A DNA stretch of 64,000 bases from Azolla caroliniana. Its lineage: Eukaryota > Plantae > Polypodiophyta. The stretch is taken from assembly GCA_043228905.1 (NCBI GenBank), contig JBHGNT010000011.1:10292001-10356000 (forward strand), given 5' to 3'. The position numbers were made by a program, and so were the translations under genes. How positions within the stretch are numbered: position 1 is the first letter of the stretch; each line of letters starts with the position of its first letter. The notes under the pieces are model-generated. The model made no database searches. It was not told the origin of the DNA and saw only the letters and a list, made by a program, of their open reading frames with translations. Of the stretch, positions 1,711 through 49,697 are shown in pieces.

Positions 1711-2145
1711 GTTATTGCAGCGCATAGCTTCGGAAATAGCCTCATTCAAAGATGTGGGCTTAGGAAAATCAAGCAAAAGATTTTTTATCTCACCTTGTAA
1801 TCCTCGACGGAATTGATCGAGGAGGGCTTGTCCATCCCATTCGACGTCGCAAGCGAGCTGACAAAATTCAGATGCATAGATTGATGTTGTCATGATATGG
1901 TAAGACTCGAACCCATGACTTTATGTTACATGGGTGGAGCTCTTCACAATTAGACTATATGTTGTAATACGAAGAATATTATTTTCATTTGGAACATTCT
2001 AGAAACTTCAGGAGTACTCCTGAGAACACTATAAAAAGAGGCACAAGGCATTATATCGAACCAAATCGGTTCAACGCCAGTCTTAAGACTCCTAGATACT
2101 ATTGTATATTCTCTTAACATAATATATTTTTTTTTTTATCATCAT

Positions 2146-2191
<46 letters not shown>

Positions 2192-2395
2192 GCTCTCTCC
2201 TTCTCTCGAGAGTTCTACACCTCCCATAGTACTAATCCTCTTTTAGTACTAATTCCTTCTCTCTCTTAGTATTGTTCCTGATAGTACTTCTCTGTCTTAG
2301 TACTATTCCTAACAGTTTGAACCGATTTTGGGGTCTCCTTCCTTTATCTTCTTCCTTCTCCCTCCCTTCATACTATTGCTCTTTTCTCTCATACT

Positions 2396-5300
2396 ATGGC
2401 CACTGTCAACGCTCAAGAATATCAATCCGTTTTTTCAGAGTTGCAATGCTTGAAAGAGAAGTTTCTCGCATTGGAACAAGACAATCAACGACTCTTGGGG
2501 GAACTTCAACAAATCTCCTTAGAGAAGCAGCAGACGCAACAACAACATGGGGAACTAGCGTTATGCATGCACCAGCTCGAAGCAACCATAGTAGCGATGC
2601 AACAACAAAGACACAATACGCAAGGGGTTCATAAAGAACCCAAGATCGGCCTTCCCATGAAATTCGATTCAACGCGATCACAATTTAGAGGATTCATTAA
2701 TCGGGTACGATTAGTCATTCAAATGCATCATTCCCGATATCACACCGATGCATCACGAGTGGGTTTAGTAGGCACGTTGTTAAATGGCTCAGCTTTGGCA
2801 TGGTTCACTTGGTTGTTAGAAAAGGAATCTCCTTTACTAAACAATTTTGAAGAGTTTTTAAGTGAGTTTAAAGCTTGTTTTGGAGATACTAACACCATAA
2901 GGACAACAATCAACAAAATCCAACGATTACGTCAACCTCCGCATACGCTGCAGATTTCCACCTACTCACTTCCAATATCCCCTGGGATAACCAAGCACTT
3001 ATGGAGCAATTTCGTTATGGTCTACGTAACGATGTCAAGGATTTACTCTTGACCTTCCCCGAAGAACCAAAGTCATTGATAGAAGCAATCAATCGCGCGG
3101 TGAGATGCGACAACCATCTTTTCGAACGACGTTTGGAACGTCAGTTCCAAATGCCAAGGGCAAGATAAGAGCCCACCTACGCCTCACTGGTAGCAAAACC
3201 TTTTCCAAGGGAGTCATATAATGCGTCTACAGTGAATACTCCAACTCCGATGGAAATTGACACTACACGTCATCGCAGACCATTATCGGAAGAAAGAAAA
3301 GCATCAACGTTGAGCAAATCGACTATGTCTTTATTGCGATGGACCAGGGCATATTGCAGTGAACTATCCCCATAGGCCAAGAAGACAGGTGAACCAAATA
3401 GTTGCTACTTCTAATTGTACTAAACCCGAATCTATTTTAGTAGGAATATATGATAGTCCTAATAGTATTAATATCCCAAATCTATCGAACAAATTTGATG
3501 TCCTTAGTCAGTTAGACGAACAGTTAAATGACTAAATCCAACCAAAATAGGAGCCGTTTGGTTGGACAACCCTAGATCTGTGCAGCCCATTAGTGGTTCC
3601 ATTCCCTCTAAGAAAATTAGCAATGTGTTCTTAGCCCAAGTAACCGTTAGTACTAAAAGTAACCCTCTAATACATGTCTCGGCACTCCTAGATTCTAGAG
3701 CTAATTCTTGCTTTATGGATAGGAGTTTTTCCCAAGCTCATCAAATATCCCTAAGAAAACTCCCATGTCTAGCCTCTGTAGTAGTCATTGATGGTCATCC
3801 CATTGCTTCCGGAAATATCATAGAAGAGTCAAAGCCCATTAATATTGTCCTAGATAATTTAGCTTGTGTAGTATGCTTCAATATAATTAGTATCCCAGAA
3901 CATCCCATTGTTTTGGGATTACCATGGTTCGAATTACATAGCCCAGACATAGATTGGAGAACAAGAGAAATCTGGTATCGACAAACCCGAGGATCTACTC
4001 ATAAGATTGCAACCATTTCGCTACATCAGTTGCGTTAGGAAGGACGCAAGGAATAAATGTTTCTCTTCACAACTTATCAGTCAAATCCTCCAACACTACT
4101 AAAGAGGAGTCTACCATTCACCTTCCAAAAAAGTATCGTCATTATGCCAATACGCTTCCTCACCATCGACCGTATGATTGCCCCATCGATTTACAATCGG
4201 GAAAAGAGACACCATGGGGACCGATCTATAATTTGTCACCAACCGAGCTAGAAGTCCTTCAAGCCTATATAGAGGATAATTTGGCAAATGGTTTCATTTG
4301 ACATACGAAATCTCCAGCCGGCGCACCCATTTTCTTCGTCAAGAAAAAGGCTGGATCACTTCGTCTCGTCGTAGATTACCGTTGTCGTGTGAATCTTCAC
4401 ACACTATGTAAAAAAAATAATGAAATAATAGATTAGATTAGTAGAGTATTATAGAAAGATGGATATACTCAAGAGCTTCAAAACGTTTTTTACTATATAC
4501 AAAATGGAGAAATACATATCAAGTTATGAGAAAATAAAGTTTGAGAAGATAGGGAAATTAGAACTATCCCACATAGATAGGAAAGTTAAGGCCCTGGCTA
4601 TATAAACACCTTGAGCTCCCTCATTTGTCATTTGTGCTAAGAGCACTTTGGCCACTTTGTCTTGATGGATGATGGTGGCCAAATTCCCTAAAACCGGAAC
4701 CGGCCGGTAAGCAAATCCAAAAAACGGGGCCGGTAAGCAAATCCGGAAACCGGCCGGTATGCAATCCGGAAACCGGCTGGTATGCAATCCGGAAACCGTC
4801 CGGTATGCAAAACCGGAACCGGTTGGCAAGCAAACCGGAACCGGAACCGACCGGCAAGCAAAATGGAACCGGCTACCGGACGAGGTTGGACGCGCATGGA
4901 CGAAAGATTGGATCATGCAACAAACTAAAGTAAAGGTCAAGTGAACGATCGCATGTAACTAAAGAAAAAGCCATGCAACTAAAAATAGATTCAACGAAAA
5001 GAAAAACTATGCAACTAAAACTGGAGGCATATGATCAACGAGGAACTCCATATATAATTCCATTTTTTTTCCTATACTGTCATACTCTCCATATTATCTT
5101 AATTATCTTGTCCTAAGCCATAACTCTCATAAACCTTAAAATTCCCTAAAGAAGCGATAACACTCAAAAACCCTAATCTTCCCTAAGGAAGCCATAATAC
5201 TCATATAACCTAATCCTAATCTTCCCTACGGAAGCCATAATACTCATATAACCTAATCCTAATCTTCCCTACGGAAGCCATAATACTCATAACCCCTAAT

Positions 5301-8181
5301 TTTTCTTTTCTATTAATCTTAGTAAACCTAAAACTTCTAAATCCCAATCTTGGGACATATTATAATTTCTTTTTCCTTTGTTAATGAAAATTATTAAATT
5401 TCTTCTTTCTGTTAATTGTTAAAAATAGAAACGCACAAATGTGATTATCCTCTAGTCGGAGGCCCCGGGGTCTTGCCTCAAGTTCGTGTATCCTCGTCGT
5501 ATTTTCGCGACACCGTGGTTTGAATAAGGACACCATGAAGAATAGGTGCGCACTTCCCCTTATCTCAAGTCTTTTAGAACGGATCAATGGTGCAAGGTTC
5601 TTCACAAAGATTGACTTACGAGGCGCATATAACCTCGTACGGATCCGACCAGGAGTTGAATGGAAGACCGCGTTTCGCACCAGGTATGGGCATTTCGAGT
5701 ATACGGTCATGCCTTTCGGCCTCACTAATGCGCCAACAGTCTTCCAGCAAATGGCAAATGATATATTCTGAGATCTCTTGGATGTTTGTTTGATCATCTA
5801 TTTGGATGATCTACTGGTCTATTTGAAGACCCAAGAAGATCATGATTCTCATGTATCGTTAGTACTAAAACGACTTCGAGAACATGGTCTTTATGCAAAG
5901 CTCGAAAAATGTAGTTCGAGTGCAACCAGGTAGAATTTCTAGGCTATGTCATTTTCTTGGAAGGCATCTCCATGGATCCAACTAAGGTCAAAACGGTGGT
6001 AGAGTGGCAGACTCCGCGTTCGTTGCAAGATGTGCATTGATTTCTAGGCTTTACCAATTTCTACCACAAGTTTATACAAGATTACTCAATGCTTGTTCTG
6101 CCTCTCACACGGCTCACCAGGAAGAGACAATTGTTCGTTTGGTCTGAAGAAGTAGACATGGCTTTTGAGAATCTTAAGAAGGCATTTACATCAGCTCCTA
6201 TTCTGGCTCATGTTGATCCGGAAAAAACATTCATCACCAAAGCAGACGCGTCGGATTTCGTGTTGGGTAGAATTCTGTTACAACAAGGCGATGATGAAAA
6301 GCTCCATCCTGTGGCTTCCCACTCATGCAAGTTTGACGCTGCCAAAATCAACTATGAAATTCATGATAAGGAGCTATTGACAATCATGGACTCTTTTACG
6401 CAATGGAGGCATTTTCTAGAGGGATCTTGTCATCAAGTCACCGTATTCAATGATCACAAAAACCTTTTCTACTTTCAGAATGCTCGTGTGTTAAATCGAC
6501 GTCAAGCTCGGTGAGCCCAATTCCTCACTCAATTCGACTTAAAAATTACATATCGTTCGAGGAAGCAACAAGGGAAGGTAGATGTATTATCACGACGCTC
6601 GTATCTAGCACTGCGTCCTGGCGAGCCAGCTTTCGATAACCAAAAGCAAGTAATCCTGGGACCAGCATGCCTGCAAACAACGCAGGTTTTCCACATTATC
6701 GATACCATAAGTGAGGACTTGAAGACATATGCTTTCACCCAAGCCATTCTAGCACAAATTGATCCCTCTCGAGCATCTTGTTCACAGTCGCAACAACCAG
6801 GTACAGACTATCGATAATTCAAATGTCATGATGGATTACTATTCTTTAAGAAACTCTTGTTTGTTCCTAATGGTTCTTGTCGCCTTCGAGTAATCCAAAA
6901 TTGTCATGACACATATACAATTGGGCATTTTGGTAGTACTAAAACATTAGATTTAGTACAACGATATTTCTGGTGGCCCCATATGTGACAATTTGCCAAA
7001 GATTTTGTTCGGACTTGTGATACATGTTGCAGAGCAAAAATGCCAAGGCACTATATAGTTTATTAGAACCATTACCAATTCCAAGCAAGCCGTGGCAATC
7101 CATCGCTCTAGATTTCATCACAGATCTTCCAATCTCTAAGGGATTCGATGCGTTCTTAACAATAGTTGATCGATATACGAAGATGGCCCATTTCCTACCA
7201 TGTACTAAGGAAATCTCTTGTGAGGAAACCGCTGAAACTATCATGCGTGACGTATGTCAACATCATGGCCTTCCCAATAGTATCCTCAGCGACCGTGGAC
7301 CCCAGTTCATCTCGAAATTTTGGAATCACCTCTTTAAAATGCTCAAGGTCACTTGTAACCTCTCCTCTGGCTACCACCCGCAAACACATGGCCAAGCAAA
7401 ACGAACAAATCAAACGCTAGACCAATATCTTCGGTGCTTTCTAAGCTATCATTAGGATAACTGGGCTGATATTCTCCACTTCGCCAAATTTGTGTATAAT
7501 AACTCTGTCCACTGATCGACAAAGGTTACACCATTTTATGCTTATATGGGCTGCCACCCCCGGTGGTGTGTATTTGAAACCCCAGAGTTACCAACAAATC
7601 CTTGCGCAGAGGATCATTTGGAGCGGTTACGCAAGATACAAGCGGATTTATCTACTCATCTACAACATGCTCAACAAACACACAAGGTTTACGTGAATCG
7701 TCATCGGCCTCTATCTAGTTTTAACATTGGAGATCGGGTATGGCTACTACGATGACACATCAAGACTACTCACCCATGCGAGAAGTTGGATTATCGGCGA
7801 TTAGGTCCTTTCCGTATTATCAGAAAAATTAATGATGTCGCTTTTCGTCTCGATCTACCTCCACAACTTCAGATACATCCGTTGTTTCATAGTTCTCTCC
7901 TCGAACCCTATCAAGACACCACCATCGCAGGTCGTATTAAACAACCTCCACCCCCGATCGAACTTGAAGATGAACCTCAGTACAAGGTTGTCACCATCCT
8001 CAATTCCAAGATTGTTTGCAACAAGCTCTACTATTTAGTCGATTGGCTAGGATATATTCCCAGCGAGCGTACCTGGGAACCAATAGAGAATGTGACCAAT
8101 GCTCGTGCTCTTCTTGAAGACTTCCATCGTCAATATCCAGACAAAACGACTCGTGACACTCGTCGTTTTAATTGGGGATAA
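2396..8181 (+). pseudogene. gag-pol (gag, PR, RT, RH, IN, chromodomain) of element B, disrupted
   Basis: ORF fragments 2396-3052, 3562-4038, 5520-5771, 6089-6514, 7024-7455 and 7786-8181 in gypsy domain order. Confidence 0.9.
4383..5512 (+). mobile_element. Solo LTR (1130 bp) inserted in the RT of element B, probably from an E-related non-chromoviral gypsy
   Basis: TGTCGTG...CGCGACA ends and 4-bp TSD CCGT; removal restores DYRGLNK. TATA-like CTATATAAA near 4598; internal AACCGG-rich repeats (4690-4880) and about 43-bp repeats (5170-5300); 3' end resembles the E LTR end. Confidence 0.85.
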
Positions 8182-8477
8182 TGTCCTGATATGGCAAGAC
8201 TCGAACCAATAACCTTATGTTACATGGGTCGAGCTCGTGACCATTAGACTATATGTTGTAATACGAAGGATATTATTTTCATTTAAGTTTTACTGTAGAA
8301 AATTGATGTATATTCCACATTTCTTTGGAACATTCTAGAAACTTCAGGAATACTCCTAAGAACACTATAAAAAGAGGCACAAGGCATTATTTCGAACCAA
8401 ATCAGTTCAATGCCAGTCTTAAGCCTCCTAGCTACTATTGTATATTCTCTTAACATAATATATATCTTTTGTTATCA

Positions 8478-8522
<45 letters not shown>

Positions 8523-9644
8523 TTCCTTCTCTCGAAAGTTCTACACCTCCCTTAGTACTAATCGTCATCGTTTAGTACTAATTCCTTCTCTGTCTTAGTA
8601 TTGTTCCTTACAGATGCCGCACGCTTTCGTTGTTGTAATGCATATAATTTGTTGAGTGTGGCTCGTCGTTTGTTGGTCTCCCCGAAAGTTGCTTCAAATT
8701 CAGTAAGAAATACTTGGAAGTCGGTCAAGAGGGGTGAAGAGGTCTCCACCAAAGGGCAAGCCAAGCTTGGGCTTGTCCTAACATCAATGTGCGGATGAGT
8801 CCGGCTCATCGAAAGTCATCAGAATAGTGTCGGGGCTGAAGGCGAATAATAAGGCGGATCTGGTTGATGAAGCCTCTTAACTATGACCTTGTTCCATCGA
8901 ATTTATCTGGGAATCTAACATTAGGTTCTATTGTAGAAGGGTCAATAATTGGGTGAGGTATGACCGTTGTTGCTGCTTGAAGTTCTTGGAGGGAGTTTCA
9001 CAAGTTGGCATTCTCATGTTGGAGTTGTTGCAAGACCACCAAAATTTGCTCAAGGTTACTAGATGATTTTGACATGATAGTGTATTGAGAAAGAAGAAAA
9101 AGAAGGAAGGAAATCAATCTGTCACGGATGAACAATTGGAAGATAAAGAGATGGGGAAGTTGATGACAATGAGTAAGAATATCTATTCCATGACTGGTGT
9201 TGATTTCCTTGATGTTAACAAGGGAGATCAACCCTTTTTATACATGTAGTGAGGCATGATAAGCATATTCATGCCAAGTCTTACATACTTAGTCTTATAT
9301 ACCACTCTTTATACAAAGGTTTAAAATCTAAAGTTTTTCTAGGAGAAATATATATATGCAAGAACCTAAGGCTAAAATTAGAGTCGATGTTCATGACAAA
9401 ACTATCGTTTAAGTTATTCTATTGATGAAATGAATGAAGGAAAATGAACAAAGAAAGAGTTCATGCTTACGAATCATATATTCTTTTTCCAAAACCGTTA
9501 ATGCTTACAATAAATCGCGGATTCATATATTCCTTTTCCAAAACCATGATTTTTTAAACAAGACAATCATCATTCAAGTTATTCCATTAATAAAATGGAT
9601 GAAGGAAAATGAACAAAGAAAGAGGAGTTCATGCTTACGAATAA

Positions 9645-9905
9645 AATCGGTGTTGGAAGAAGCCTCAAATCGGTTGAAGAAGCCTTAAATCAGTCTTTGA
9701 AAAAGCCTCAAATCGATGTTGGAAGAAGCCTCAAATTGGTGGAAAAAATCTCAAATCGGTGGAAGAAGCCTCAAATCGGTAAAAGAAGCCTCAAATCAGT
9801 ACTGGAAGAAGACTCAAATTAGTGAAAAAAGCCTTAAATCAGTGTTGGAAGAAGACTCAAATCAGTGAAAGATGCCTTAAATCTATGTTGGAAGAAGCCT
9901 CAAAT
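9645..9905. repeat. Minisatellite of 21-24 bp units, GAAGAAGCCTCAAATCGGT(GTT)G
   Basis: About 11-12 degenerate tandem copies, preceded by a direct repeat ATGAAGGAAAATGAACAAAGAAAG at about 9434 and 9599. Confidence 0.75.
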
Positions 9906-12900
9906 ATGATGCAAGAGGTTTAGTGTTTGAATAAACATCAAATCTGAGATAAGATAATGGGTGCTAACAGATATTCATGCATAACATAAAATCTTAGATA
10001 GGAGGATGGAGGATACCTAAGATGCATAGTTATCAAATCTAAGTCAATCTCGATTAGATAGAGGAAGAGGAGGCATCTCACCAGGTCCAACCGATCCGGT
10101 TTCCGGATCTCTTCTAGTTCTCACCGAGTCCTCTTCATTCATAACCGAATCCCATCCGGAGGGACCGGATTCCCAACAATCTCCCCCTTCACTCTGGCAT
10201 GGGATGTCTCGTCAACCCGATCCGCTTTCAGCAAGCGTCCAGCTTGTCAGTTGTCAACACCTTGGTAAGCATATCCAACCCGTTCTCCTCCGCGTGGATC
10301 TTCATCAGCACGACCTCTTGATCTTCTACCTTCTCCCGAAGCCAGTGATATCTCCTTTGGGTGTGCTTCGTCCGAGAATGGGAGGCCGCATTCTTCGCAA
10401 GGTGGATGACACTTTGGCTGTCGCAGTAGAGCCGAATTCCTCCTGCCAGATCCCTAGCTCTCCGATGAAGTCCTTCATCCAGATTATCTCCTTGTTGGCT
10501 TCCACATCTGGCATGTACTCCACCTCCATGGTTGACAACGCAACCGTCTTCTGCAACCTCGACTGCCACGAAACAGCTCGCCCTGCAAAGGTCATGAAAT
10601 ATCTGGATGTAGACTGGATGGTATCCGCATCAGCAGACATATCCGAATCAGTGAAGCCTTCCAAGAGGGGTTTACCGAAGCCGAATCGGAGGCACATACT
10701 CAAGGTGCCTTTCAAATACCGGAGTACCCACTTTACCGCGTTCCAGTGCTCTGTTCTGGGATTTCTCATAAACCGGCTCAACACTCCAACTGCATATCTA
10801 ATATCCGGTCGAGTACCAACGCATACATCAAGCTCCCGACGGTAGAAGCATATGGTATCTTCATCATATCCGTCTTCTCCGCCTTTGTCCTCGGCCTTTG
10901 TTTTTCGGATAGCTTGCAGTTTGCCGAAAGTGTCGATCCAACCGGTTTTGCCTCTGAAATGTTGAATCGTTGAAGCACCTTCGTCACGTACTTCTCCTGT
11001 GTCAGCCACAACACCTTCTTCGGCCAGTCCCGGATGATGTGCATTCCCAATATTTGTCTAGACGGACCCAAGTCTTTCATTGAGAAGGTCCAGTTCAGAT
11101 CCTTCTTCAGCATCTGAATCTTGCCTTGGTCTCGTTCGACGATCAGCATATCATCCACATATAGGTGGAGTATGAGGAAATCTCCTCTGCCAAATTTCTT
11201 CACAAGCACGCAGTGATCGGCCTGCGTCTTGTGGTACCCTTGGTCGGTCATGAAGGAGTCGAACTTCCGATACCATTCCCGGGGAGCTTGCTTCAGTTTG
11301 TATAGGCTCTTCTTCAACCGACACACCAAATGCTCCTTCCCTTTCTTCAAAAATCCTTCTGGCTGCTGCATGTAGATCTCCTCTTCGACGTCACCATGGA
11401 GGAACGTCGTCTCTACGTCTAGTGGCTCTACCTCGAGGTCCATGCTTGCCACTATGCGCAGCACCGTCTAAATGGAAATCATCTTAACTACTGGGGCAAA
11501 GATCTCGTCGAAATCCACTCCTTTCTTCTGCTAGAAACCCTTCATCACGATCCGGGCTTTGTATCTCGGTGAGTTTCCGGCATCTCCTGGATTTAGCTTA
11601 TAAACCCACTTGTTCCGAAGTGCCCTCTTTCCTTTCGGCAACTCCGTCAGTTCATACATGTAGTTCTCATGCAGGGAATCCATCTCGTCCTGCATGGCAC
11701 TCGACCACTTGCGGCTATGGGTGTCTTTCTTTGCTTCTTCGAAGCTTTCCAGCTCCCCCTCATCCGTCAACAATACGTGCTTTGCATCCAGAAATCTCTG
11801 GGGGCTCTTCTCTCTCGAAAAGGATATCTCCATCCTTGGTTTCTGACTACCGGTTCCTCCGTTTGTTCTTCATCTGAGTCCGATTCGGGATCTGGTCCGG
11901 TTCTGGTGTCTTCTTCTTCTTCGGTCGGTTTGGTTTCTTGTCCGTATCTGGCCAATTCATCAAGTGTCCTCCAATTGCCGGCCAACATCCGATTTTCAAC
12001 CGGGTAGGACCTTGTGTCCTCAAACTGGTTTTCATTGGATCATCCGGAGTTCATCATCTTCTTCTCCGACTCTCAGTCGGCAATGGTCCTGTCTTCCATG
12101 AACACTATGTCCCAAGACACCCGAACACCTTCAAATGTTGGTAAGATACATCTTTACCGGTCCATACTTTCTACAGTGAGTCTCCTTCCAAGGGTGTTGA
12201 GGGTGATTTGTTTATCACATAGGTCACCGTCATCAGCGCCTCAGCCCAAAACTTCTTGGGTAGCTTTGCATGTGCAAGCATGCTCAAGACTCTCTCCATT
12301 ATGGTCCCGTTCATCCGTTCGGCCAGCCCGTTTAGTTTCGGCGTCTTCGGCATTCCCTTCGACTAGCAATACTCATCGAACTGGCCCCGGTATTCTCCTC
12401 CGGTGTCCACTCGAATCGCCTTCAACTTCTGGTTGGTTTCTCTTTCCACTCTCATGTGGAGCTCCTTGAAGACAGATAACACTTGATCCTTCATCTTCAT
12501 TTGTGAAACCCACAGCTTCCGGCAGTGGTCATCTATGAACGTCACGAAGTACTGCGATCCAGCATGTGACTTCGTGTCCACTTGACACACATCGGTATGC
12601 ACCAGCTCCAGTGGTGCATTCTATCTCATCGGTGGCCTTGACCGGAAGGAGGTTCGGTTTTGCTTACCGGCCAAGGAATCGGTGCACTTCTCAAGATACA
12701 CATCTTTCACCTCCGGAATGAGGTTATCTTCGGCAAGTCTTCTCATCCCCTTCTGGCTCATATGACACAGTCTCTTGTGCCACAACTCACCGGCAGTGTC
12801 GGATGCTATGTTCACTTCTTCCCAGCATATCCGGGCATGCATCATATATAGCATGTTGATCTTCCGGGATCAAGCCACAATCAGGCTTCCTTTGCTGAAT

Positions 12901-14394
12901 TTCATGACTCCGTTCTGGATGCTACCCGTGTAGCCTTCATCATCTAGTTGACCGGTTGATATCAGGTTCAATCGAACCTCCGGAACGTGTCGAACATCCT
13001 TTAGCAGCAACTTGCATCTGGTTGATGTCGTCAACAACATATCTCCTATGCCAACAATTCATTATGTACCTTCATTCCCCATCCGGACACAACCATGATC
13101 TCCGGTTCTGTAGGATGAGAAACATCTCCGGTCCGGTGTAAGATGGAACAATGCTCAGAAATCGACAACCCATGTTGTCTCATCGCCGACAAGGTTTAAC
13201 TCATTCTCCTCGTTAATGAGCATCAATTCTTCTTCACTTGTCGTGATATCCGACGTTCCCTTTCGATCCGATCCTTTTCGGTCTGAACCGTTCCGGTATG
13301 AACCCTTCTTCGAATCGGAACTGTCGGTTCCTTTCTCTTTCCGGAAATGCTGACAGTTCTTCTGGAAGTGCCTCGGCTTGCCGCAATAGAAGCAAGTAGC
13401 CCTCCCCTTGACTTAGACCTCGTCCCTGATTTGTCCCGGTTTTGGGGACTCCGATACCAGCCTCTTCCACGGTTATGGTCATCTTTCGTAACAAAGGCCT
13501 TTGGATCGGTTGTGGACTCCCGGTCCTTTCGGTCAGCTTCTTCATCTAACAAGCTTGATTTTACCCTTGCTAAGGACAACTATTTTCCTTCCGGCCTGGC
13601 GTTGCCCAATGTGACAACTAACGTCTCCCAACTATCCAGGAGGGAATAGAGCAGGAGCAATGCAAGTACCTCATCCGCAAGAGGTACTTCCAACGAGGTA
13701 GCTTGGTGTGTTAGCCCTTGGAAGCCATTCATGTGCTCTGCGATACTAGAGTTGTCTTGGTACCGGAGCCTCACTAACTTCCAGAATACCAAAACCCGAT
13801 TAACATCATTCTTGTTCTGGAACATGATGTCGATCTTCTCTCAGAGTTCATGAGCCTTACTTTCTTCATTGAAGTTGTTGTACAAGCTCATGTAGATGAA
13901 GCACTGGATATACGTCGTCATCTTCATGTGCATCACCTCCCAAAGTGGCGTCGATCTTATCTGGTTTCTTGTCCCTGAACTGAACTAGCAACCAAAGATC
14001 TTTAATCACCAGCATATCCCTCATCTTCGACTTCCACACTGAGTAGTTGGAGCCAATGAGCTTGAAAATGCCGCCGAACGATTCTTCCATTTCCTGTGTT
14101 GTTCGCTCTGATACCAGATTGAACGAAATAATGTGGAATATTGCTCGGCCACAACCGAGTCTTGAATCACTTCGATGAGAATCAAACACAGAGGAATGGG
14201 AAGTAGGGAGTGAACGCACATACACACACAAACAACGAGAGTACACAGGATGTTTACGTGGAAAACCCTAATAGGGAAAAACCATGGGAGCCCATGACTC
14301 CAAACTCTCACTATATAAGAAATGTACAATCAGAGACTCGGAGGCACCGACCTTGAGCTCTGTATCTTCTCCAAGCAGCGGTTACAACAGAGTA

Positions 14395-14460
<66 letters not shown>

Positions 14461-14745
14461 CAACAGTTATGCACATACAACAATATGACAACAACTTACT
14501 TTTGTGTTTGCCCTAGGTCATATTTATACTCATATGCACTTCGGGCTATTTACAAATATAGCCTCAATAGGCTTATTCAAAACATATTTACAAATATGTC
14601 TTCTCTTCCAATTCTCACTGGGTCCATCCGATCCGGTTTCCGAATCTCTTTCGATTCTCACCGGTGTCATGGAGAAAACCAGCCATAGGAGGAATTGGGA
14701 GTCCTAGCGCGTGAACAGGTTTTTCACAGATACGCACCAATTTAA

Positions 14746-15251
14746 TGTGGAGAATGGTGCAGAATTCTGCTCAGCCACAACCAAGTCTTGAGCACTTCTC
14801 TTGAGAATGAAACACAAAAATGGGAAGTGGAGAATACACAAAGGAAATACACATAGGATGTTTACGTGGAAAACCCTAATAGGGAAAAACCACGGGAGCC
14901 CACAAACTCCAAACTATCACTATGAAGAGAAAGGGTACAATCAGAGACTCATAGGCAGCGACCTCAAGCTCGGTTTCTTCGCTAGGCGGCGGTTACAACA
15001 GTTACAACAACAACCACATAAAGTGATTGCCCTAAGTCATATTTATACTTATATGAACTTAGGTCTATTTACAAATATAGCCTCAATAAGCTTACTCAAA
15101 ACATATTTACAGATATGTCTTCTCTTCCGGTTCTCACCGGCTTTCTTCCAGTTCTCACAAGGTCTCCTCCGGTTTCCGGATCTCTTCCAGTTCTCACCGG
15201 GTCCTCTTTATTCATCACCGGATCCCATCCGGAGAGACTGATTTCCCAACA
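14746..15251 (-). mobile_element. Solo LTR of the Tnt1/Tork-like copia family inside the 5' LTR of E
   Basis: TG...CA ends and perfect TSD TTTAA (14741-14745, 15252-15256). The empty site is visible in the E 3' LTR; similar to the G LTR. Confidence 0.92.
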
Positions 15252-18200
15252 TTTAAGTTAATGTACCTTATTTAAGAATAGGTCGGCGTGCTGTAAGTAT
15301 AAACATATTAATAGGTTAATAGGTTAGCAAGTCAAGGCGTATCTTTGTCCGAAGGTACAGAGAATAAAGGTGATGTAACTAGGATGTAACAGCCCACCTC
15401 GACAGCCTATAAAAAAGGTGGAAGAAAGACTAAGGGGGATATCGCGTTTTGGGAGGGGGAAGTGTTGGCGAACTGGGAACCGAGCACTGATCTCTGTTTT
15501 TCTTATGATCAATCTTTGCTGTAATCTCTGTTTGGTTGTAATCGATTCTTCCTAAGGTGTAATCTCTGTCTATCTTTGGCGTGTTGTCGTTTCCCTGTCT
15601 GAACCGGCAAGTGTTGTGCTTGCCGATACTCGGTGTCTCCGTTCTTTCTCTTTCCTTTCTCTTTCCCTTCTATCTTCGCACACTCCTCGGTCCAGGGCCC
15701 CCCCGGTCCTGCCTTAGTTTCCTACGCGCATGCGTGACAACACGACATAATTTGGTGAACCCAATGTGAAACAAGCGGCAGAGGAGCTTGAAGATGAGAG
15801 GATCCGAACTCGCCGAAGTTATGGCAATAGCCGTCGATCGGCTGGTGAGCACTCGTGAGGGCACGGGTACCCTCGACATAGCCATCGAGTCCATAGTTGG
15901 CAAGATAGGCCGGTTCAGCGGGAAGAACGCAACAAGCTATTTGGAGGCCTATTGGGCCGAGATGATAATGAGGGACATCGCAGAGGACAGACAATTGTCC
16001 GGATTCCCTCGGGTGGTGACACCGGGCATCCACGCGGAGGTGCTCAAGGTGCAGGTTGGCTGCCAGACCTTGGAGTTTGAAGGGCGGCTCCTCGAGAGGT
16101 ACGTGTACGATGACTCCCTTCGGTTGTCAAAGCGGGACTTCATGGAATGGGTTGAGACCCCCGGAAAGGGGAGGAATACGTCAGTGCTCCTTCAGGAATT
16201 CGAGAAACGGTTTGCCCGGCTCTCGGTGTTAGACAGGGCCATGCTTGACACGAGTCATGTCCTATTATTCGTCAAATCTGTGAATGTGCAAGATCAGGAG
16301 CAAGTGGGTCTCCTACTGGAGACGGATGAAGGGCTCACGGCTGACTGGAATGTGGTAAAGAGAGTCTGTAGCCGTTTTGACAAGCAGCGCAAGTGGAGAG
16401 ATGAGGGTTCGGCGACAATGGGACCAACGGCGGCAGGGAAGTCTGAGGAACCATTCCTGGCGTGAAAGGAAGAAACCTAAAGTTGGCTCAAGTCAAGCTC
16501 GGCCCCGACCGGCGTGGTCAAGGGCCCATCCGGAGGAGTGGCTTTAGAAGAGCTAACACAGATGTTGTGCGACCTCCAGATTGCACAGGCCCGGAGAGAC
16601 AATGGAGAATAGTCGCACGACTAGAGGCCTCTGACTGGACAACGATGCGTGTTGTGCGACGAGGTCGGCCACAGCAGGAGAGATTGCGCGGAATTTACGG
16701 AAGCACTCAGAAGTAACTTAGTATACCTGTGGAACGGGTAGGTGCACGCTAGCGACACCTGGAGAGCCCTGGAGATGAATACCGGATGTGGCAGAATGAA
16801 GTGGCTAATGGAGGAAGCTACAGCGCGCCATGCAGAGGCCGTCCACTATTCAGCGTCAGCTAGGATCCGGGTTGGAAGTGACGAAGAACTCTGGATTCTG
16901 GCCATTGGTGCTAAAAGGCCTCTCTGGAGTACGATTGGAGAGGGAGGAAGCGGACCGTGCAAAGCATCGGGTCCGGGGAGTCACGGGGTGGTCCGATCCG
17001 GTCGAGGAGAAGGCCGGATTAGTGGAAGCGACGTGCCAGAACTACGAAGTTCTAGTAGAGTACAAGCGAGCGGGGAGAGCCGAAGGAACCGGACCCGCAA
17101 ACCAGTACAAGACCCAGTTCGGACCGAAGAAGAATGATGTCGGTAATTCTGGCATACTGGACAAAACAAAGCAGGCCGGTTACCGGCTGGGCATGGAGAT
17201 TGAGAGATCGACGGACTTGCTGAAGGTCCTCGAAGAGCGGATCCTCGATAGCAAGGTAGAGTTGTCGTTGAGAGAGGTGCTCGGAATCGCGAAGAGGGAG
17301 TTCCACAATTCCATCATGGACTTGGTAAAGCGTAAACGGCTCTCGACAGAGCCGGAACCAGAGAGGCCCGTGGAAGTGCGGACGACGCACCTAGAGGACG
17401 AGGCCTTGGAGGATGAGTTGGCGGAGAGCCACTACTCGAAGTTGCACTGGGCAAGAGCCGGTGGTAGCATTGATAGACCACAGCTCCGAAATAAACCTGA
17501 TGTCCATGGAGTTCTACTAAAAGGGAAAATGGCCGATCAACACCAAGCACAGGTGGAAAATACGCGCGGCTGCACGCACTACGGAGGCGTTGCACGGAGC
17601 GTGCCCGAGTGCGCGCGTAAAGATCGGCGACGTCGAAATAGACCAGCACTTCTTCGTGCAGGAAAAATCCTCACACCCGGTTATCCTCAGTGAACCATAC
17701 ATTACATCAGCCCGTATGGAGACCAAGGTGTTGGACAACGGTTCGGCGTACGCAAGGGTCAAAAGCCAAGATGGACGTCACTCCGTCTAGTTCTTGACAG
17801 TACAACCGAACCACGAGCGCACCCGAGAGACTTTCCGTAGTGGCAACTGAGGGGATTTTTAGAGAGGGCTATCAAGGCATGGGGCCGCGATAGTCCGGAC
17901 ACCCCGGAGGAACCCCACACGTGTACCATAGGTAGGAAATTTTGGTTCTTCAAAAACGGAGGTTGTACGATAGCCGGCATCGGCGGCTGGGAAAGAAGAT
18001 AGGTCGAGGAGCGTCTTAGAGCATGCGGAGCCCTCAGCCTCGACAAAGAGATTAGCGGCGTCGTGGAGGTGGTCTCTTTCGACGACACCCTAGGAAAGAT
18101 GGGGAAGGCGTCCGATGAAGGACTCGGTGAAGACCGGGTCATTCCAGTTAGTTCCATGGAAATGTATGAAGTCATTGCCGACTTCGGGGGCAAGGTTGGG

Positions 18201-20186
18201 TCGGGTTGGATGGCCTGCGTAGACACGAGGTACAAGACTGTGGACTGGAAGGTGAGGCCAGTGGCGGCTCCCTTGCCGGAGGGCAGCAAGGAATGGATGA
18301 AGGGGGTCACATTGGACCCAACTTTGCGGAATCTGGCCGACATAGAGCACCGGTTCACCGATATAATGCTACGGGAGCTCAAGATCAGTGGGGGTGGGTT
18401 TCTACTACTAGCGGAGGAGGACTGGTTTCGGAGGATGCTCGGGAGGCACGGGAAGGCCTTCGCATTTTCTCCGGAGGAGATTGGGTGCGTGGACCCGATG
18501 ATCATGAACCTATGGTTATCTTCACAGTATCGCATGTGTCGTGGAACCTCAAGCCGATTCTGGTACCCAGAGCTCACATCCCGAAGTTGATGGAGCTACT
18601 GAAGCAGAAGGTGGAGATGGGCATCCTCGAACCGTCGAGTGCCCCGTATTCGAATCAAGGGTTTACAGTGCCGAAGAAGAACGGCATGTTGCATTTCATT
18701 CAAGACCTGCAGTCGGTCAATAAGGTGACCAGTCGAAACACAGGAATTGGGCCGACCATTGACAAGTTTGCGGAGGCCTTCGCTAGAAGGTCGATCAATT
18801 CGGTTGGTGATCTATGCTTAGGATACGATCAATTCCAACTAGCCATAGAGAGCAGGGATATTACAACAATGCGAACTCCTCTCAGTTTATTGCGGATGTG
18901 TACCCTGCCGCAAGGAGGGACCAACTTGGTGGTGCATATGGTGAACGCAATGAACAAGGTGCTAAGGGACTGTATCCCGGACATCATCATGCCATTCTTG
19001 GACGACATCCCAATAAAAGGGTATCCGGTGGAAGATAAGGATGATTTGGTCGGGCCAGATGGATGCCGGAGGTTCGTGGCGGATCACATCGACGATTGCG
19101 AGAAGGTGCTACAAAGGCTCGACGATGCGCGGCTCACCTTCTCCGGGGAGAAGTCGGCTTTCGGGCAATCCGAAATCTTGGTGGTTGGGCACTTGTCCGG
19201 GCCTTATAGCCGAAAACCGTCTCCGACGAAGGTGGAAGCCATCTCCGTAGTAAAAGAAGAATGCAAGTCGGTTACAGAGGTCTGGAGGTTCTTGGGCGTG
19301 TGTGCGTTCTACCACATCTGGATTCCGCACTACGCACACGTCGCGGAACCACTCTACGGGTTGTTGAAGAAGGGGTGTAAGTTCGAATGGAGCGAAGAGC
19401 ACGCGGAGTCGATCCAAAGGTTGAAGGAAGCGCTAACCACGGCACCAGCACTCCGGAAAGCGGTTTACGAAAAGGGGGTCCCGATATATGTGACCGTGGA
19501 TACGAATCCGACCGGGATCGGATGGGTGGTCAATCAAGAGGACAGAAACTACATGAGGTTCCCCATCCGGTTCGGAGCAAAGGTACTAAGCGGGCGGCAG
19601 CGGGGGTACGCCCAGGTTAAGCGCGAACTTTGGGGTATCATTTCAACAGTTAAGGCCGACAAAGACTATCTTATCGGGACGGAAGTAATAATCGAGACAA
19701 ACTGCCTACCGAGTGTCATGAACACATGACCATTATGGCGTCACCCGGACTTGAACCTCGAACCTTGTAATTCATACTTGAAAACCTCAACCATTAAGAT
19801 AGCTTATTGTTATATGAAACAATAAAAGCTACTTCTTGTATTACATTGATTATTGTAAAAACTCTAGATTATTCTAAAATGTTCTAGAATGTCCTAGAGC
19901 ATTCTAGGTCTAGAACATTCTAGAACATTCTAGAAATCTCTAAGCTATTCTATAGGAACCTATAAATAAGCGCATACATGTATTCTCAAATCAATTCGAA
20001 TCAACACCAGTCTTTAGCTCTCATTACATATCTTGTATCCATTCTCTTTCTTTCTCTATCTTATACATCCATTCTTCTCTATCCTTCTTCCATCACTCTA
20101 TCTTTTATCCTTGGTTCTGACAGTTTGATTCGAATTCTCTCACTCTCTCTCTCTCTCTTATCCTCCTTTGTAACCATCCTGAAACC

Positions 20187-21878
20187 ATGGTTGCCATTAA
20201 CTCAGAAGAATATCTCACCCTTGTTGCAGAAATGGAGAACCTTAAATCCAAGTTCGCATCTCTTGAAGTAGAGAATCAACGTCTACTTGGGGATCTACAA
20301 AAGGTTACTATAGAGAAGCAACAACAACAAGAGGAGTTCACGCAACGAGTGCAACAGTTAGAGTCGACAATCGTCGTGTTACAACAACAAAGGGTTGAAG
20401 GTCAAGGACTCATCAAGGAGCCCAAAATTAGCCTCCCAGCTAAATTTGATGGGTCGAGGGCGCATTTCCGAGGTTTTTTGAATCAAGTACGGTTGGTGAT
20501 TCAAATGCATCCCGCACGTTATCCAACAGATGCATCACGAGTCGGGGTAGTGGGCACTTTATTGACTGGCATAGCGTTGTCGTGGTTTGCTCCATTGCTA
20601 GAGACCAATTCTCCTCTATTGAATAATTTCGAGGAATTTATCAAGGAATTTAAGGCTTGTTTCGGAGATACTGATGGGGCGAGAACAGCTATCAACAAGA
20701 TTCGTACACTTCGTCAAGGTGATCAACCAGCTTCTACATATGCTGCCAATTTCCGTCTCATCGCAAGCGATATTCCTTGGGATGAACAAGCCCTAATGGA
20801 GCAATTCCGTTCAGGCCTTCGTAGTGATGTCAAAGACTTACTTCTTGCCTTCCCCGAGGATCCAAGGTCACTTACAGAAGCTATTAGTCGAGCAATACGG
20901 TGTGATAATCGCCTTTTTGAGCGTCGATGTGAGCGACAACAACAAATAACAAGATCTAGATTCACACCAACTTATGCATCAGTAACGGCGCAATCATCCC
21001 CAAGGCAAATGTATAGCCCTGCTCCAACTCCAATGCAAACACGTAGTCCAGTCCCAATGGATAGTCCTACACCCATGGAGATCGATATGACTCAATGACG
21101 AGGACCGTTGTCAGACGAAGAGAAGCAACGTCGTCGAGAAAACCATCTGTGCTTATATTGTGGAGGTCCAGGACATATAGCCATTCATTGCTCCCGTAGG
21201 CCGAGACGTCAGGTAAATCAAATTCACTATGACAATAAAAATGAGTCCAACATTTTAGAAGTAGTTAGTGAATCTAATATTATGAATAATCCACCCTTGT
21301 CCAATAAATTTGAAGTCCTAAGCCAATTAGAAGAGGAATCAAATGAATAAGTCCGGCCAAAATAGGAGCCATTTGGTTAGACAACCCTAGATATGTACAA
21401 CCTAGTGTGGGTTCCATTTCTTCCAAGCATGGTAGTAGAGTCTTCTCAGCCCTAGTACAAGTTAGGACACCCAGTTGTCAACATCAAGTCCAAGCCCTCT
21501 TAGATACTGGAGCCAATTCTTGTTTCATGGATAGAGATTTTGCCCAAAAACACCAAATATCCTTGCATACACTTCCTTGTCCAGTTTCCGTAGTAGTGAT
21601 TGATGGACGCCCCATAGCTTCCGGGAAGATATTTGAAGAGTCTGAGCCAATACACATACTCTTGGGTGATTTAGGATGTGTAGTTTCCTTTAACATAATC
21701 CGTAGTCCTGAGCATCCAATTGTCCTCGGTTTGCCATGGTTCGAGCTACATAACCCTAGAATCGATTGGAGGAAGCGAGAAATTAGGTGCCCTTTAGCAG
21801 AAAATATCATTGTCAAGGATCGAACTCGGGATTATCCTCCCAAAGTATATAGTTCTACCGATGCACCATATCCTTCTC
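20187..21878 (+). pseudogene. gag (internal TGA at 21096) and protease (-1 frame) of element C
   Basis: 303-aa gag ORF (EPKISLPAKFDGSR) continues in frame to zinc knuckle [14 protein letters not shown] and stop at 21350; protease ALLDTGANSCF in ORF 21407. Confidence 0.9.
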
Positions 21879-21940
21879 TGTTGGGATTTCGGTCCCTCCG
21901 GATGGGATGTCCGGAGATGAATGACGGCAAGCCCGGTTGC

Positions 21941-22102
21941 GGTTACGGAGCCGGATGATGAAGACCCCGGTTACGGAACCGGATGATGAAGACCCCGGTT
22001 ACGGAGCCGGATGATGAAGACCCCGGTTACGGAACCGGATGATGAAGATCCCGGTTACGGAACCGGATGATGAAGACCCCGGTTACGGAACCGGATGATG
22101 AA
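21941..22102 (+). repeat. Six tandem 28-bp units (last partial) in U3 of the D LTR; also at 26735-26896
   Basis: GGTTACGGA(A/G)CCGGATGATGAAGACCCC starting at 21941, 21969, 21997, 22025, 22053 and 22081. Confidence 0.95.
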
Positions 22103-22585
22103 TGTACCCGGAGAGAGATCCGGATGCGGAGACATATTTGTGAATATGTTTGCCAAGAGCCCTTGAGGCTATATTTGTAAATAGCCCGAAAGTCATATGT
22201 GTATAAATATGACTTAGGGCAAACAGTTTTATGTTGTTGCTCATTTTTCATGAGAAGTGAGAGCAGCCGAGAGAGAGAGTGAGAGACGAAGAGGTCGTTG
22301 CCTCTGTGTAATACCGCCGCCTGTGGCGAGGACAGCGAGCTCAAGGTTGTTGCCTTGTAGCCTCACCATTGTACATCTCTGTGTATAGTGATAGTTGGAG
22401 TTAGAGGACTCCCGTGGTTTTTTTCCCATTTAGGGTTTTCCACGTAAACATCCTGTGTGCTCTTCTCTCTGTTGTTCTTCGTGCATTCTTGTATTTCCCG
22501 TTTTCTGCGAATCGATCCTGTTCCTCGGTTGTGGCCGAGCACGGAATTGCAACAAACTGGTATCAGAGCGACGGTAACACAGAAA

Positions 22586-25500
22586 ATGGAAGGCGGCGGT
22601 AGTGGGCCTCCGGGCATGATGGTGCTGAACGCGCAGAACTACGCCGACTGGAAGATAAAGATGGAGGATCTGCTCATTGTTCGGGACCTGTATGAACCGA
22701 TCGACAGGTCGGAAATACCCAAGGGGGTACTTGAGACGGAGTGGAGGCTTCTGAACCGGAAAGCCGTTGCAACCATTCGGCAATACGTCGACGTGAGCGT
22801 TCTACAGCATGTGGCGAACGACACCAACGCATATGAGATGTGGCGGAAGCTGTCGGGCCTCTATGAGAGGAAGAATGCGTTGAACCGGACCTCCCTGATG
22901 AGGAAGATAGTGAACCTCAAGTACCGGGACGGCGAGAGTATGGTGGAACACGTAAGCACGTTCATGGGATTCGTGAACCAGCTTGCGGCGATCAAGTTCC
23001 CGTTGGAGGATGCAATGCAAGCCATCATCCTGATGTGTACATTGCCGGACAGCTGGGAGAACTTGGTGGTGACTCTCAGCACCTCCTGCACCGAAGATAA
23101 CTTGTCTCTACAAACGGTAAAGACAAGTATTTTGAACGAAGAAGCGCGTCGGAGAGATAAAGAACCGGTCTCCGACTCGAAGGCGCTGCTTACCGAATCG
23201 GAACGGGGAAGACAGTGGAACCGGAGTCCGCAAAGACGGGAGAAGTCGGGGACCCGGTCGCAGTCAAGAGGAAGGCCAACATGCTTCCACTGTGGGAAGC
23301 CGGGGCACTTCCGGAAGAATTGTCGGCATTACCGAAAGGACAACGGAGCCGACGACACCGATTCGAAGAAGTCACCGGAGAGAAACGGTGCATACCGGGG
23401 AGCCACGGACCGGAGAGGTCCGGATCGGCGAGGGCAGGACCGGAAAGGAACAACGGCACTCGCGGCAAGTGAGGAAGAAATCATGCTCATCACCGAAGAA
23501 GGTGAACTAAACGTAGCCGGCGATGAGACGACCTGGGTGGTCGATTCCGGAGCATCGTTCCACCTGACCCCGGAGAGAAGATACTTCTCATCCTACACAG
23601 CCGGTGAGCATGGCTGTGTTCGGATGGGGAATGAAGGTACGTGCCGGATTGCCGGCATAGGAGACGTGTGGTTGACAACCCCGACCGGATGCAAAATGCT
23701 GCTGAAGGATGTTCGACACGTTCCGGAGGTTCGATTGAACCTGATTTCGGCCGGGAGGCTAGACGATGAAGGCTACACGGGTAGCATCCGGAACGGTGTC
23801 ATGAAGTTCAGCAAAGGGAGCCTGATAGTGGCTCGGGCCCGGAAGGTCAACACCCTGTACCTGATGAATTCCCGGCTCTGTCCGGAGGAGCTGAACGTGG
23901 CAGCCGACACTGCCGGTGAGCTGTGGCACAAGAGACTGTGCCACATGAGTGAGAAGGGGATGAAGAGGCTTGCAGAAGACAACCTTATTCCAGTGAAGCA
24001 TGTGCACCTGGAGAAGTGCACCGACTGCCTGGCCGGTAAGCAAAACCGGACCTCCTTCCACTCAAGGCCACCGACGAGACGTAGCGCACCATTGGAGCTG
24101 GTGCACACTGATGTGTGTCAGGTAGAAACGAAGTCACATGGCGGAGCCCAGTACTTCGTGACATTCATTGATGACCACAGCCGGAAGCTGTGGACGGCAC
24201 CGTTGAAGACAAAGGACCAAGTGTTGTCCGTCTTCAAAGATCTCCACGCGAGAGTGGAAAGGGAATCCGGCAAGAAGCTGAAAGCAATACGAGCGGATAA
24301 CGGAGGGGAATACCGGGGGCAGTTCCAGGAGTACTGTCGCTCGAAGGGGATCCGGCTCGAGTTTACTGTGCCGAAGACGCCGGAACTGAACGGGCTGGCC
24401 GAGAGGATGAACCGGACCATAATGGAGAGGGTCCGGAGTATGCTGGCGCATGCGAAATTACCCAAGGGGTTTTGGGCTGAGGCAATGTCGACGGCGACGT
24501 ATGTGATAAATAGATCACCCTCAGTACCTCTGGACGGAGACACGCCGCAGAAAGTGTGGACCGGTAAGGAAGTGTCCTACCGGCATCTGAAGGTGTTCGG
24601 GTGTCTCGCATACGTGCATGTGGCAAAGGACCGGAGAGGAAAGCTAGATCCAAAGACCCGGCCATGCATATTCCTCGGTTACGGGGACGACGAGTTCGGC
24701 TACCGAGTATGGGACCCGGTCGACAAGAAGATATTCAGGAGTCGAGACATCATCTTCATGGAGGACAAGACACTCGCCGACTGGGAGTCGGAGAAGAAGA
24801 TGAAGAGCTCAAAGTCGACCGGTGAGGATCAACTCTACGAGGAGCAGTCCCGACCGGCAAGGGACCGGTTAGCACTCGAGGATCCGGCCGAAGACGGTGA
24901 AGAAACAGAACCGGCCGAAGAAGATGAAAATGATACCGGAACCGGCCCCGATCCCGAAATGGATTCCGATGAAGAAGAAGAATCGGAAGAACCGGTTACC
25001 GAAGCTCCCGAACGGAGATATCCTCTAAGAGAGAGAAGGGCCCCCCGGAGATTTCCGGAACCAGAGCACGTGCTGCTAACAGACGAGGGGGAGCCGGAAA
25101 GTTTTGAAGAAGCAAAACATGACACCCAGAGCCGCAGGTGGTTGAGTGCCATGCAGGACGAGATGGATTCCCTGCATGAGAATCACACATATGAACTTGT
25201 GGAGTTGCCGAAAGGAAAGCGGGCACTTCGAAACAAGTGGGTGTTCAAGCTGAAACCGGGAGATGCCGGAAACCCCCCGAGATACAAAGCCAGGATCGTG
25301 GTGAAGGGGTTTCATCAAAAGAAGGGCGTCGACTTCGACGAGATATTTGCCCCGGTAGTGAAGATGACCTCCATCCGGACGGTGCTGAGCATAGCAGCAA
25401 GCATGGACCTCGAGGTAGAACAGATGGACGTGAAGACGGCATTCCTTCACGGTGACCTCGAAGAAGAGATCTACATGCAGCAACCGGAAGGATTCGAGAA

Positions 25501-26662: not shown

Positions 26663-27353
26663 AGGGGGAGTTTGTTGGGATTTCGGTCCCTCCGGATGGG
26701 ATGTCCGGAGATGAATGACGGCAAGCCCGGTTGCGGTTACGGAGCCGGATGATGAAGACCCCGGTTACGGAACCGGATGATGAAGACCCCGGTTACGGAG
26801 CCGGATGATGAAGACCCCGGTTACGGAACCGGATGATGAAGATCCCGGTTACGGAACCGGATGATGAAGACCCCGGTTACGGAACCGGATGATGAATGTA
26901 CCCGGAGAGAGATCCGGATGCGGAGACATATTTGTGAATATGTTTGCCAAGAGCCCTTGAGGCTATATTTGTAAATAGCCCGAAAGTCATATGTGTATAA
27001 ATATGACTTAGGGCAAACAGTTTTATGTTGTTGCTCATTTTTCATGAGAAGTGAGAGCAGCCGAGAGAGAGAGTGAGAGACGAAGAGGTCGTTGCCTCTG
27101 TGTAATACCGCCGCCTGTGGCGAGGACAGCGAGCTCAAGGTTGTTGCCTTGTAGCCTCACCATTGTACATCTCTGTGTATAGTGATAGTTGGAGTTAGAG
27201 GACTCCCGTGGTTTTTTTCCCATTTAGGGTTTTCCACGTAAACATCCTGTGTGCTCTTCTCTCTGTTGTTCTTCGTGCATTCTTGTATTTCCCGTTTTCT
27301 GCGAATCGATCCTGTTCCTCGGTTGTGGCCGAGCACGGAATTGCAACATTCTC

Positions 27354-49352: not shown

Positions 49353-49425
49353 GGGGGTGTAGCTCATTTGGTAGAGCACTTGCATGGCATGCAAGAAGTA
49401 CGGGGTTCGAGACCCCGCATCTCCA
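49353..49425 (+). tRNA. tRNA-Ala, anticodon GGC (copy 1)
   Basis: 73-nt cloverleaf: acceptor GGGGGTG/CATCTCC with G3:U70 and A73; D stem GCTC/GAGC; anticodon stem CTTGC/GCAAG with loop ATGGCAT (GGC at 49386-49388); T stem CGGGG/CCCCG with loop TTCGAGA. CAA just upstream and T-tracts downstream. Confidence 0.9.
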
Positions 49426-49624: not shown

Positions 49625-49697
49625 GGGGGTGTAGCTCATTTGGTAGAGCACTTGCATGGCATGCAAGAAGTACGGGGTTCGAGACCCCGCATCTCCA
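49625..49697 (+). tRNA. tRNA-Ala, anticodon GGC (copy 2, identical to copy 1)
   Basis: Same 73 nt, part of a 272-bp-period tandem duplication (about 49351-49860). Confidence 0.88.

Follow-up and report, generated by a model that had tools for sequence, protein, structure and literature searches.

The window examined here is a stretch of 64,000 nucleotides (nt) from Azolla caroliniana (assembly GCA_043228905.1, contig JBHGNT010000011.1, positions 10,292,001 to 10,356,000 of the forward strand), and positions are counted from its first letter. It contains two long terminal repeat (LTR) retrotransposons of the chromovirus kind, elements B and C. Near the start of each of their LTRs lies a tRNA-like module on the minus strand, consisting of an A box and a B box as in promoters of RNA polymerase III (Pol III). 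The four modules are the following:

1904..1957, minus strand: module of the element B 5' LTR; A box 1957-1947 (one mismatch), spacer 33 nt, B box 1913-1904
8198..8251, minus strand: module of the element B 3' LTR; A box 8251-8241, spacer 33 nt, B box 8207-8198; both boxes fit their patterns without a mismatch
19736..19801, minus strand: module of the element C 5' LTR; A box 19801-19791, spacer 33 nt, B box 19757-19747, acceptor-strand remnant down to 19736
30316..30422, minus strand: rearranged module of the element C 3' LTR; A box 30422-30412, spacer 26 nt, B box 30385-30375, B half duplicated (B box 30343-30333)

The window modules match the A- and B-box patterns with 0-1 mismatches, with both boxes on one strand; the A box of the B 5' LTR, with its single change, reads TAGTCTAATTG. 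The patterns are textbook forms, in agreement with those given in PMC10886601. When both strands of the 64 kb were searched for A/B pairs with at most two mismatches, six places were obtained: the B 5', B 3' and C 5' modules, two tRNA-Ala copies and one match in a coding linker. An earlier note on this DNA, which had described the module in B and C, had considered that such pairs might be equally common in shuffled LTRs. For the B 5', B 3' and C 5' LTRs, none of 100 dinucleotide-shuffled versions of the first 130 nt reached the score of the real sequence. These three modules are beyond chance.

The motifs quoted in the earlier note for these three LTRs were all recovered on the minus strand at the positions listed above, each with a spacer of 33 nt. 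As in the earlier note, the module was not found in the LTR of a neighboring element, A: the search gave no pair in the region of A's 5' LTR (approximately 9100-10070). The C 3' module with its 26-nt spacer and duplicated B half is not mentioned in the note. In contigs of three DNA runs, no spacer indel of the C 3' type was observed at a level of at least 10%, indicating that the 33-nt spacer is the norm of the C family; on the same contigs we dropped the idea that the 7-nt difference is a duplication in the C 5' LTR. The claim that the B and C LTRs are otherwise poorly alignable is only partly right, as a 14-nt U3 motif, the TATA box and a self-priming R motif are common to both. The proposal that the C module ends like a mature tRNA had to be abandoned: the terminal CCA corresponds to tRNA positions 71-73, that is, the end of the acceptor strand plus the discriminator, and is thus not the added tail of positions 74-76, and this stretch is not conserved across families.

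The two tRNA-Ala copies are identical, carry a GGC anticodon and are located at 49353-49425 and 49625-49697 in a tandem unit of approximately 270 bp; each has an A/B spacer of 32 nt and a run of four T residues (T4) about 30 nt downstream. A GGC anticodon is unusual for tRNA-Ala in eukaryotes. The linker match (21817-21878) is an antisense A/B-like pair in the protease-reverse transcriptase (RT) linker of C, with two mismatches, a spacer of 31 nt and a T4 shortly after, and the target site TTCTC of a copia element lies 6-10 nt upstream of its A box. It was considered as a second captured module (21868-21817) and rejected as probable chance; the linker of a relative, P0221, is homologous and similarly long.

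Elements B and C

The elements carrying the modules are organized as follows:

1888..2314, plus strand: 5' LTR of element B (TG...CA), left target site GATGT
2029..2035, plus strand: TATA-like box of the predicted RNA polymerase II (Pol II) promoter of B, in the 5' LTR
2315..2328, plus strand: predicted self-priming site of B, 12/14 complementary to LTR 2063-2076; no tRNA-type TGG site
2321..8145, plus strand: internal region of B encoding gag, protease, RT, RNase H, integrase and chromodomain; disrupted by an insertion at ~4385-5510 as well as by frameshifts
8182..8612, plus strand: 3' LTR of element B, right target site GATGC; 93% identity with the 5' LTR in the aligned columns
19714..20122, plus strand: 5' LTR of element C, target sites CCGAG/CCGAT; lies within the RNase H of a different gypsy element
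19802..19841, minus strand: AT-rich stretch upstream of the A box of the C 5' LTR, a predicted TFIIIB site
19960..19966, plus strand: TATA-like box of the predicted Pol II promoter of C, 158 nt inward of the A box
20123..20136, plus strand: predicted self-priming site of C, 12/14 complementary to LTR 19992-20005
20121..30290, plus strand: internal region of C encoding gag, protease, RT, RNase H, integrase, SH3 domain and chromodomain, split by a young copia element at 21879-27348
30300..30743, plus strand: 3' LTR of element C; 99% identity with the 5' LTR in the aligned columns

Element B is inserted in the gag of the minus-strand element A. Its two target sites agree at 4 of 5 bases, as do those of C, pointing to a 5-bp duplication. 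A tRNA primer site was found in neither B nor C, and the bases following the 5' LTR are complementary to the element's own R region. The chromodomain of C is recognized by Pfam (Chromo, 8e-14). Within the SH3-chromodomain alignment a Y, a W and a Y are conserved, which we take to be the aromatic-cage positions. Self-priming, an aromatic-cage chromodomain and 5-bp target duplications are the marks of Tcn1 elements, which occur in mosses and club-mosses (Neumann et al., PMC6317226). By these features, and by comparison with the Selaginella element SM-Tcn1 by eye, B and C are classed as Tcn1-type chromoviruses with predicted self-priming, which makes a non-seed land plant their likely host. The host genes at 33-57 kb of the window did not point to a lineage.

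Several further observations were made on these elements. Between module and TATA box, the U3 regions of B (8325-8345), C (19865-19945) and several relatives contain repeats of a palindromic TTCTAGAA-type motif, which resembles a heat-shock element. Compared to B and the relatives, C is about 50 residues short before RT, between two similar short repeats (27390-27425). The copia element at 21879-27348 has LTRs identical over 676 nt and an open frame of 1404 residues, indicating a very recent insertion into C. The gypsy element hosting C has no clear purine tract before its 3' LTR (32370-32410).

Conservation of the module among related chromoviruses

Relatives of B and C were fetched with an alignment of 28 SH3-chromodomain sequences; as only protein was used, the search was blind to LTR content. 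It provided 99 loci, namely the best 80 of 546 metagenome matches, one viral locus and 18 from genome contigs. The latter (L082-L099) are chromodomain-integrase relatives in prokaryote genome records and are probably eukaryotic contamination. LTRs were scored at 72 of the 99 loci, 21 being left out for want of a called LTR start and six because less than 100 nt of LTR was present; among those left out are four members of the B/C clade, L003, L005, L012 and L014, and L012 carries a worn module by eye. An LTR was counted as positive if its first 130 nt contained an antisense A/B pair with at most three mismatches and a spacer of 31-35 nt. Such minus-strand pairs were present in 16 of 18 LTRs of the B/C clade versus 1 of 54 other LTRs, while plus-strand pairs were present in none of the 18 and none of the 54. 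As the LTR of L031 is rearranged, 15 of the 16 are clear positives. At four mismatches all 18 clade LTRs were positive, the fourth being required for L028 and L075. A box-pattern search of viral contigs gave 0 matches.

In an integrase tree of 95 rows, built without named elements, the module-bearing loci form one clade with B and C (FastTree support 0.917, rising to 0.976 when the two deepest members are removed). The tree does not contain the three short loci L031, L065 and L080, which were assigned to the clade by identity and LTR likeness. Summed contig depths, which are not copy numbers, suggest that the families are very abundant. Outside of the clade, an antisense module of tRNA-like kind occupies the corresponding U3 position (700-790, minus strand) in L071, a GC-rich self-priming chromovirus with 45% identity to the chromodomain region of C; it has a 12-nt A box, a spacer of 32 nt, a variable loop and a B box. 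This is possibly an independent capture, a second origin.

The earlier note had also asked whether the boxes are conserved across families. Among 11 family representatives, mean identity was 0.64 in the A box, 0.84 in the variable loop and 0.77 in the B box, compared to 0.37 in the anticodon arm, 0.36 beyond the B box and 0.42 upstream. Four-fold degenerate integrase sites had an identity of 0.35 (35 pairs of 9 elements) and LTR positions 9-16 one of 0.33. The neutral sequence is thus near saturation, and the low value at positions 9-16 indicates that box conservation is not mere conservation of the LTR end. The spacer measured 32-33 nt in all 11 family representatives and in 12 of the 12 LTRs listed, while the distance from LTR start to B box ranged from 16 to 49 nt and that from A box to R motif from 155 to 247 nt, spans of 33 and 92 nt, respectively. 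In an alignment of eight whole U3 regions, the two box bins ranked highest (0.64 and 0.66), all other bins reaching 0.03-0.54. Within families, no site of either box was variable at a level of at least 10% in the C-family contigs, and the sole box variant of family B, among 40 of 88 rows listed, retains a purine that fits the A-box pattern. Box identity, constant spacer, clade-wide presence and the shuffles together support the tRNA origin and the retention under selection that the earlier note had proposed, and from these alignments we infer purifying selection on the boxes.

These values bear on the view that the module is a neutral relic of an old tRNA insertion or of a short interspersed nuclear element (SINE), or that it comprises Pol II factor sites that merely resemble tRNA boxes. 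The failure of Rfam and ARAGORN to recognize the module and the decayed copies in L028, L075 and the C 3' LTR would fit this view, as would the plus-strand reading of the conserved bases in the variable loop, TGACC, a core usable by Pol II factors. Neutrality is ruled out by the identity of 0.64-0.84 versus that of synonymous sites and by the constant spacer; convergence of Pol II sites on two boxes at tRNA geometry together with tRNA-like variable-loop bases is unlikely. We therefore give this view very little credit.

The conserved bases of the module are the near-universal D-loop, variable-loop and T-loop residues of tRNA, and the orientation of the module makes the genomic (plus-strand) RNA complementary to tRNA. 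Both points would suit a role in which the genomic RNA pairs with a host tRNA for packaging, dimerization or strand transfer, as proposed for U3/R of HIV-1. Piekna-Przybylska et al. reportedly describe a tRNA3Lys-like sequence in this region which, by the title, acts in minus-strand transfer with the primer tRNA. HIV-1 is similar to B and C in that the tRNA-like sequence lies inside U3, but B and C are predicted to work without a tRNA primer and have no site for one. In addition, the conserved blocks are short with saturated sequence in between, and a fixed spacer of free sequence fits a DNA-binding factor with two sites better. A pairing role thus appears quite improbable.

Candidate roles of the module

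The conserved boxes are not part of a recognizable tRNA. Cloverleaf pairs were formed in 56% of cells versus 54.5% after shuffling, with 45% for the anticodon stem, and RNAalifold gave no consensus fold on either strand. ARAGORN did not recognize the modules as tRNA genes, nor did any module match tRNA in Rfam, with which the window and 19 loci were searched at E values of up to 10; this agrees with the earlier remark that no cloverleaf folds. The idea of a conserved hairpin joining spacer and B box was rejected, such a hairpin being strong in the B family only. As to the donor, the module may resemble tRNA-Arg or tRNA-Val. A terminator at a shared position is likewise missing: a T4 within 45 nt of the B box occurred in 6 of 11 families versus 10 of 29 background windows, and in the four window modules the first T4 past the B box follows after 38, 52, 274 and 805 nt. 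Conserved boxes at fixed spacing, with no cloverleaf, shared fold or terminator, indicate that selection keeps a tRNA-type promoter and not a tRNA, as far as can be judged from sequence.

A promoter of this type could still be a working Pol III gene, the antisense RNA being selected because it tunes silencing or reverse transcription. From the 3' LTR this RNA would extend over the polypurine tract and the integrase 3' end, from the 5' LTR over flanking DNA. Such a gene would account for the retention of both boxes and of an AT-rich stretch upstream, it has a parallel in foamy viruses, which produce Pol III RNAs from A/B boxes in U3 (PMC3993851), and a long hairpin is present in the module of L006, the B-family representative (z about -4). 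A shared fold is missing, however, the hairpin is strong in only one of 11 families, and the T4 counts and distances given above do not point to a defined product. Transcription antisense into integrase, as suggested in the earlier note, is weakly supported, as the first T4 after the 3' LTR box follows at 52 nt in B, short of the integrase core, and at 805 nt in C. We consider a working antisense RNA unlikely, and less likely than a site bound by TFIIIC.

The trace expected of a TFIIIC site is of just this kind: two short DNA motifs whose distance is fixed while the sequence separating them is free, and no defined RNA product. We therefore favor, at about even chances, the reading that the module is a DNA site for TFIIIC which is predicted to act as a barrier and to help keep chromatin open for the element's own Pol II promoter. 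Among the variants considered, a TFIIIC barrier appears to fit the anatomy best. A TATA-like box is located 113-206 nt inward of the module, and in the 11 families the 40-nt stretch upstream of the A box averages 82% AT, versus 66% deeper in U3. TFIIIC positions TFIIIB upstream of the A box (PMC3082873, PMC13578239). Following a single ancestral capture of a tRNA gene or the head of a tRNA-derived SINE, the boxes would be bound by TFIIIC, which would set TFIIIB on the AT-rich stretch between module and Pol II TATA box. The Pol III and Pol II promoters would thus stand back to back, with the former directed outward. The complex on a 5' or solo LTR would then be positioned at the border to host DNA, 16-49 nt from the element end. 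Silencing that spreads from adjoining heterochromatin, where a chromodomain integrase is likely to insert, would enter at this edge. Transcripts made by Pol III, if any, would be by-products that differ in length. In fission yeast, barriers formed by tRNA genes require TFIIIC and Pol III and act independently of orientation (PMC2040200), and the chromodomain of the moss element RLG1 has been proposed to target heterochromatin (PMC7466625).

The location of the B box, 16-49 nt from the att end, would also suit a role in integration, with TFIIIC on the U3 tip of the cDNA or on integrated copies guiding or attracting integration as a tether or landing pad. One copia in the window is inserted 6-10 nt upstream of an A/B-like pair. 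This pair lies in native linker coding sequence common to P0221 and is probably there by chance; moreover, none of the four window LTRs contains an insertion, B and C are themselves inserted in coding regions of other elements, and there is no pile-up upstream of the A box among the contig loose ends listed. A role in integration is therefore quite improbable.

Several observations weigh against a selected TFIIIC barrier. The within-family contrast in C is weak, with 2 variable sites of 97 versus 14 of 151 in U3 (p 0.03) and 21 of 313 in the whole LTR (p 0.13), and the C 3' LTR module is broken. The variable loop, which is not known as a promoter element, is more conserved than the A box. A CAA start motif was present in 4 of 11 families versus 10 of 78 windows and is not clearly enriched. 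Both this motif and the AT-rich upstream region are reported to be weaker in non-flowering plants (PMC13578239). All 18 clade loci stem from one assembly series and represent independent element families, not independent hosts. The module is absent from the neighboring tree branch, a weakly supported sister of Tcn1 type, and by eye no box pair is present at the U3 start of SM-Tcn1 or, over its first 400 nt, in the transcript of moss RLG1; chromoviruses can thus thrive without it. Finally, TFIIIC barriers of plants are not described in the searched passages of the review PMC9540200.

A broader proposal, to which we are only tentatively inclined, is that an autonomous lineage of plant chromoviruses domesticated a tRNA promoter as a built-in insulator, so that every copy comes with a TFIIIC barrier of its own at the outer LTR edge and can land in heterochromatin by its chromodomain and yet stay transcribable. 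If this were true, TFIIIC sites and chromatin boundaries of the genome would come mainly from retrotransposons, through their many thousands of LTRs, and the unrelated L071, with a module at the same position and in the same orientation, would represent a repeated invention. The module touches the open question of how elements targeting heterochromatin are expressed within it, and it is a candidate for TFIIIC-based barriers in plants. Comprising 54 nt with two mutable boxes in very abundant families, it is directly testable. As it is missed by Rfam and ARAGORN, similar modules may be overlooked elsewhere.

Comparison with known systems

No earlier description of the module was found in the literature searched, which covers neither Repbase nor the greater part of the subscription journals, the first papers on moss chromoviruses included. 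Earlier captured Pol III promoters belong to short non-autonomous LTR elements and serve as their own promoter. As judged by its sequence, the present module is real, conserved and, unlike those promoters, outward-facing in coding, self-priming chromoviruses. Here a whole clade of coding elements has retained one in reversed orientation, which must therefore have a role that differs from the element's own transcription.

Among the closest known are the Helenus elements (TRIMp3; Kojima 2024, PMC10886601), a group of miniature terminal-repeat retrotransposons (TRIMs) which includes one family from a lycophyte. Both of their LTRs contain tRNA-derived sequence in which the A and B boxes are conserved and tRNA function is mostly lost. 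Helenus elements are non-autonomous TRIMs of 311-1263 bp with tRNA primer sites, whereas B and C belong to an autonomous chromovirus kind of about 6 kb, coding, self-priming and equipped with a Pol II TATA box. The Helenus promoter is proposed to transcribe the element, while the B/C module lies on the minus strand and faces outward in all positive loci. Kojima considered it unlikely that autonomous partners share such LTR sequence, and mentioned that a fair number of Repbase LTRs hold undescribed tRNA-like parts (PMC10886601). Cassandra and Ajax similarly retain an internal Pol III promoter in their LTRs over the long term, but it is a 5S (type 1) promoter in non-autonomous elements and drives the element's own RNA (PMC10886601).

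The microRNA cassettes of simian foamy virus are similar in that an autonomous LTR retroelement has A/B boxes in U3 beside its Pol II promoter. Their products are defined hairpins with terminators, whereas the B/C clade has neither a shared fold nor a shared terminator and has kept variable-loop bases and the geometry of a tRNA (PMC3993851). Among chromoviruses, SM-Tcn1 shares with B and C the chromodomain, the 5-bp target duplication and predicted self-priming (PMC2864245, PMC6317226), and its R motif and the bases after its 5' LTR closely match those of C by eye. Evidence for self-priming was not found in the original description (PMC2864245), yet by eye the sequence that follows the 5' LTR can pair with the R motif, in the manner of B and C. 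SM-Tcn1 differs in its U3 start, which by eye is without the box pair, and no tRNA-like module is mentioned for Tcn1 LTRs in the passages considered of PMC2864245 and PMC6317226.

With regard to the favored TFIIIC reading, the nearest counterpart is the yeast barrier formed by tRNA genes and TFIIIC, in which a unit of A and B boxes likewise stands beside heterochromatin and orientation is not required. The yeast barriers are host tRNA genes whose activity has been demonstrated by experiment (PMC2040200), whereas the module of B and C is mobile and non-folding, and its part as a barrier is a predicted one.

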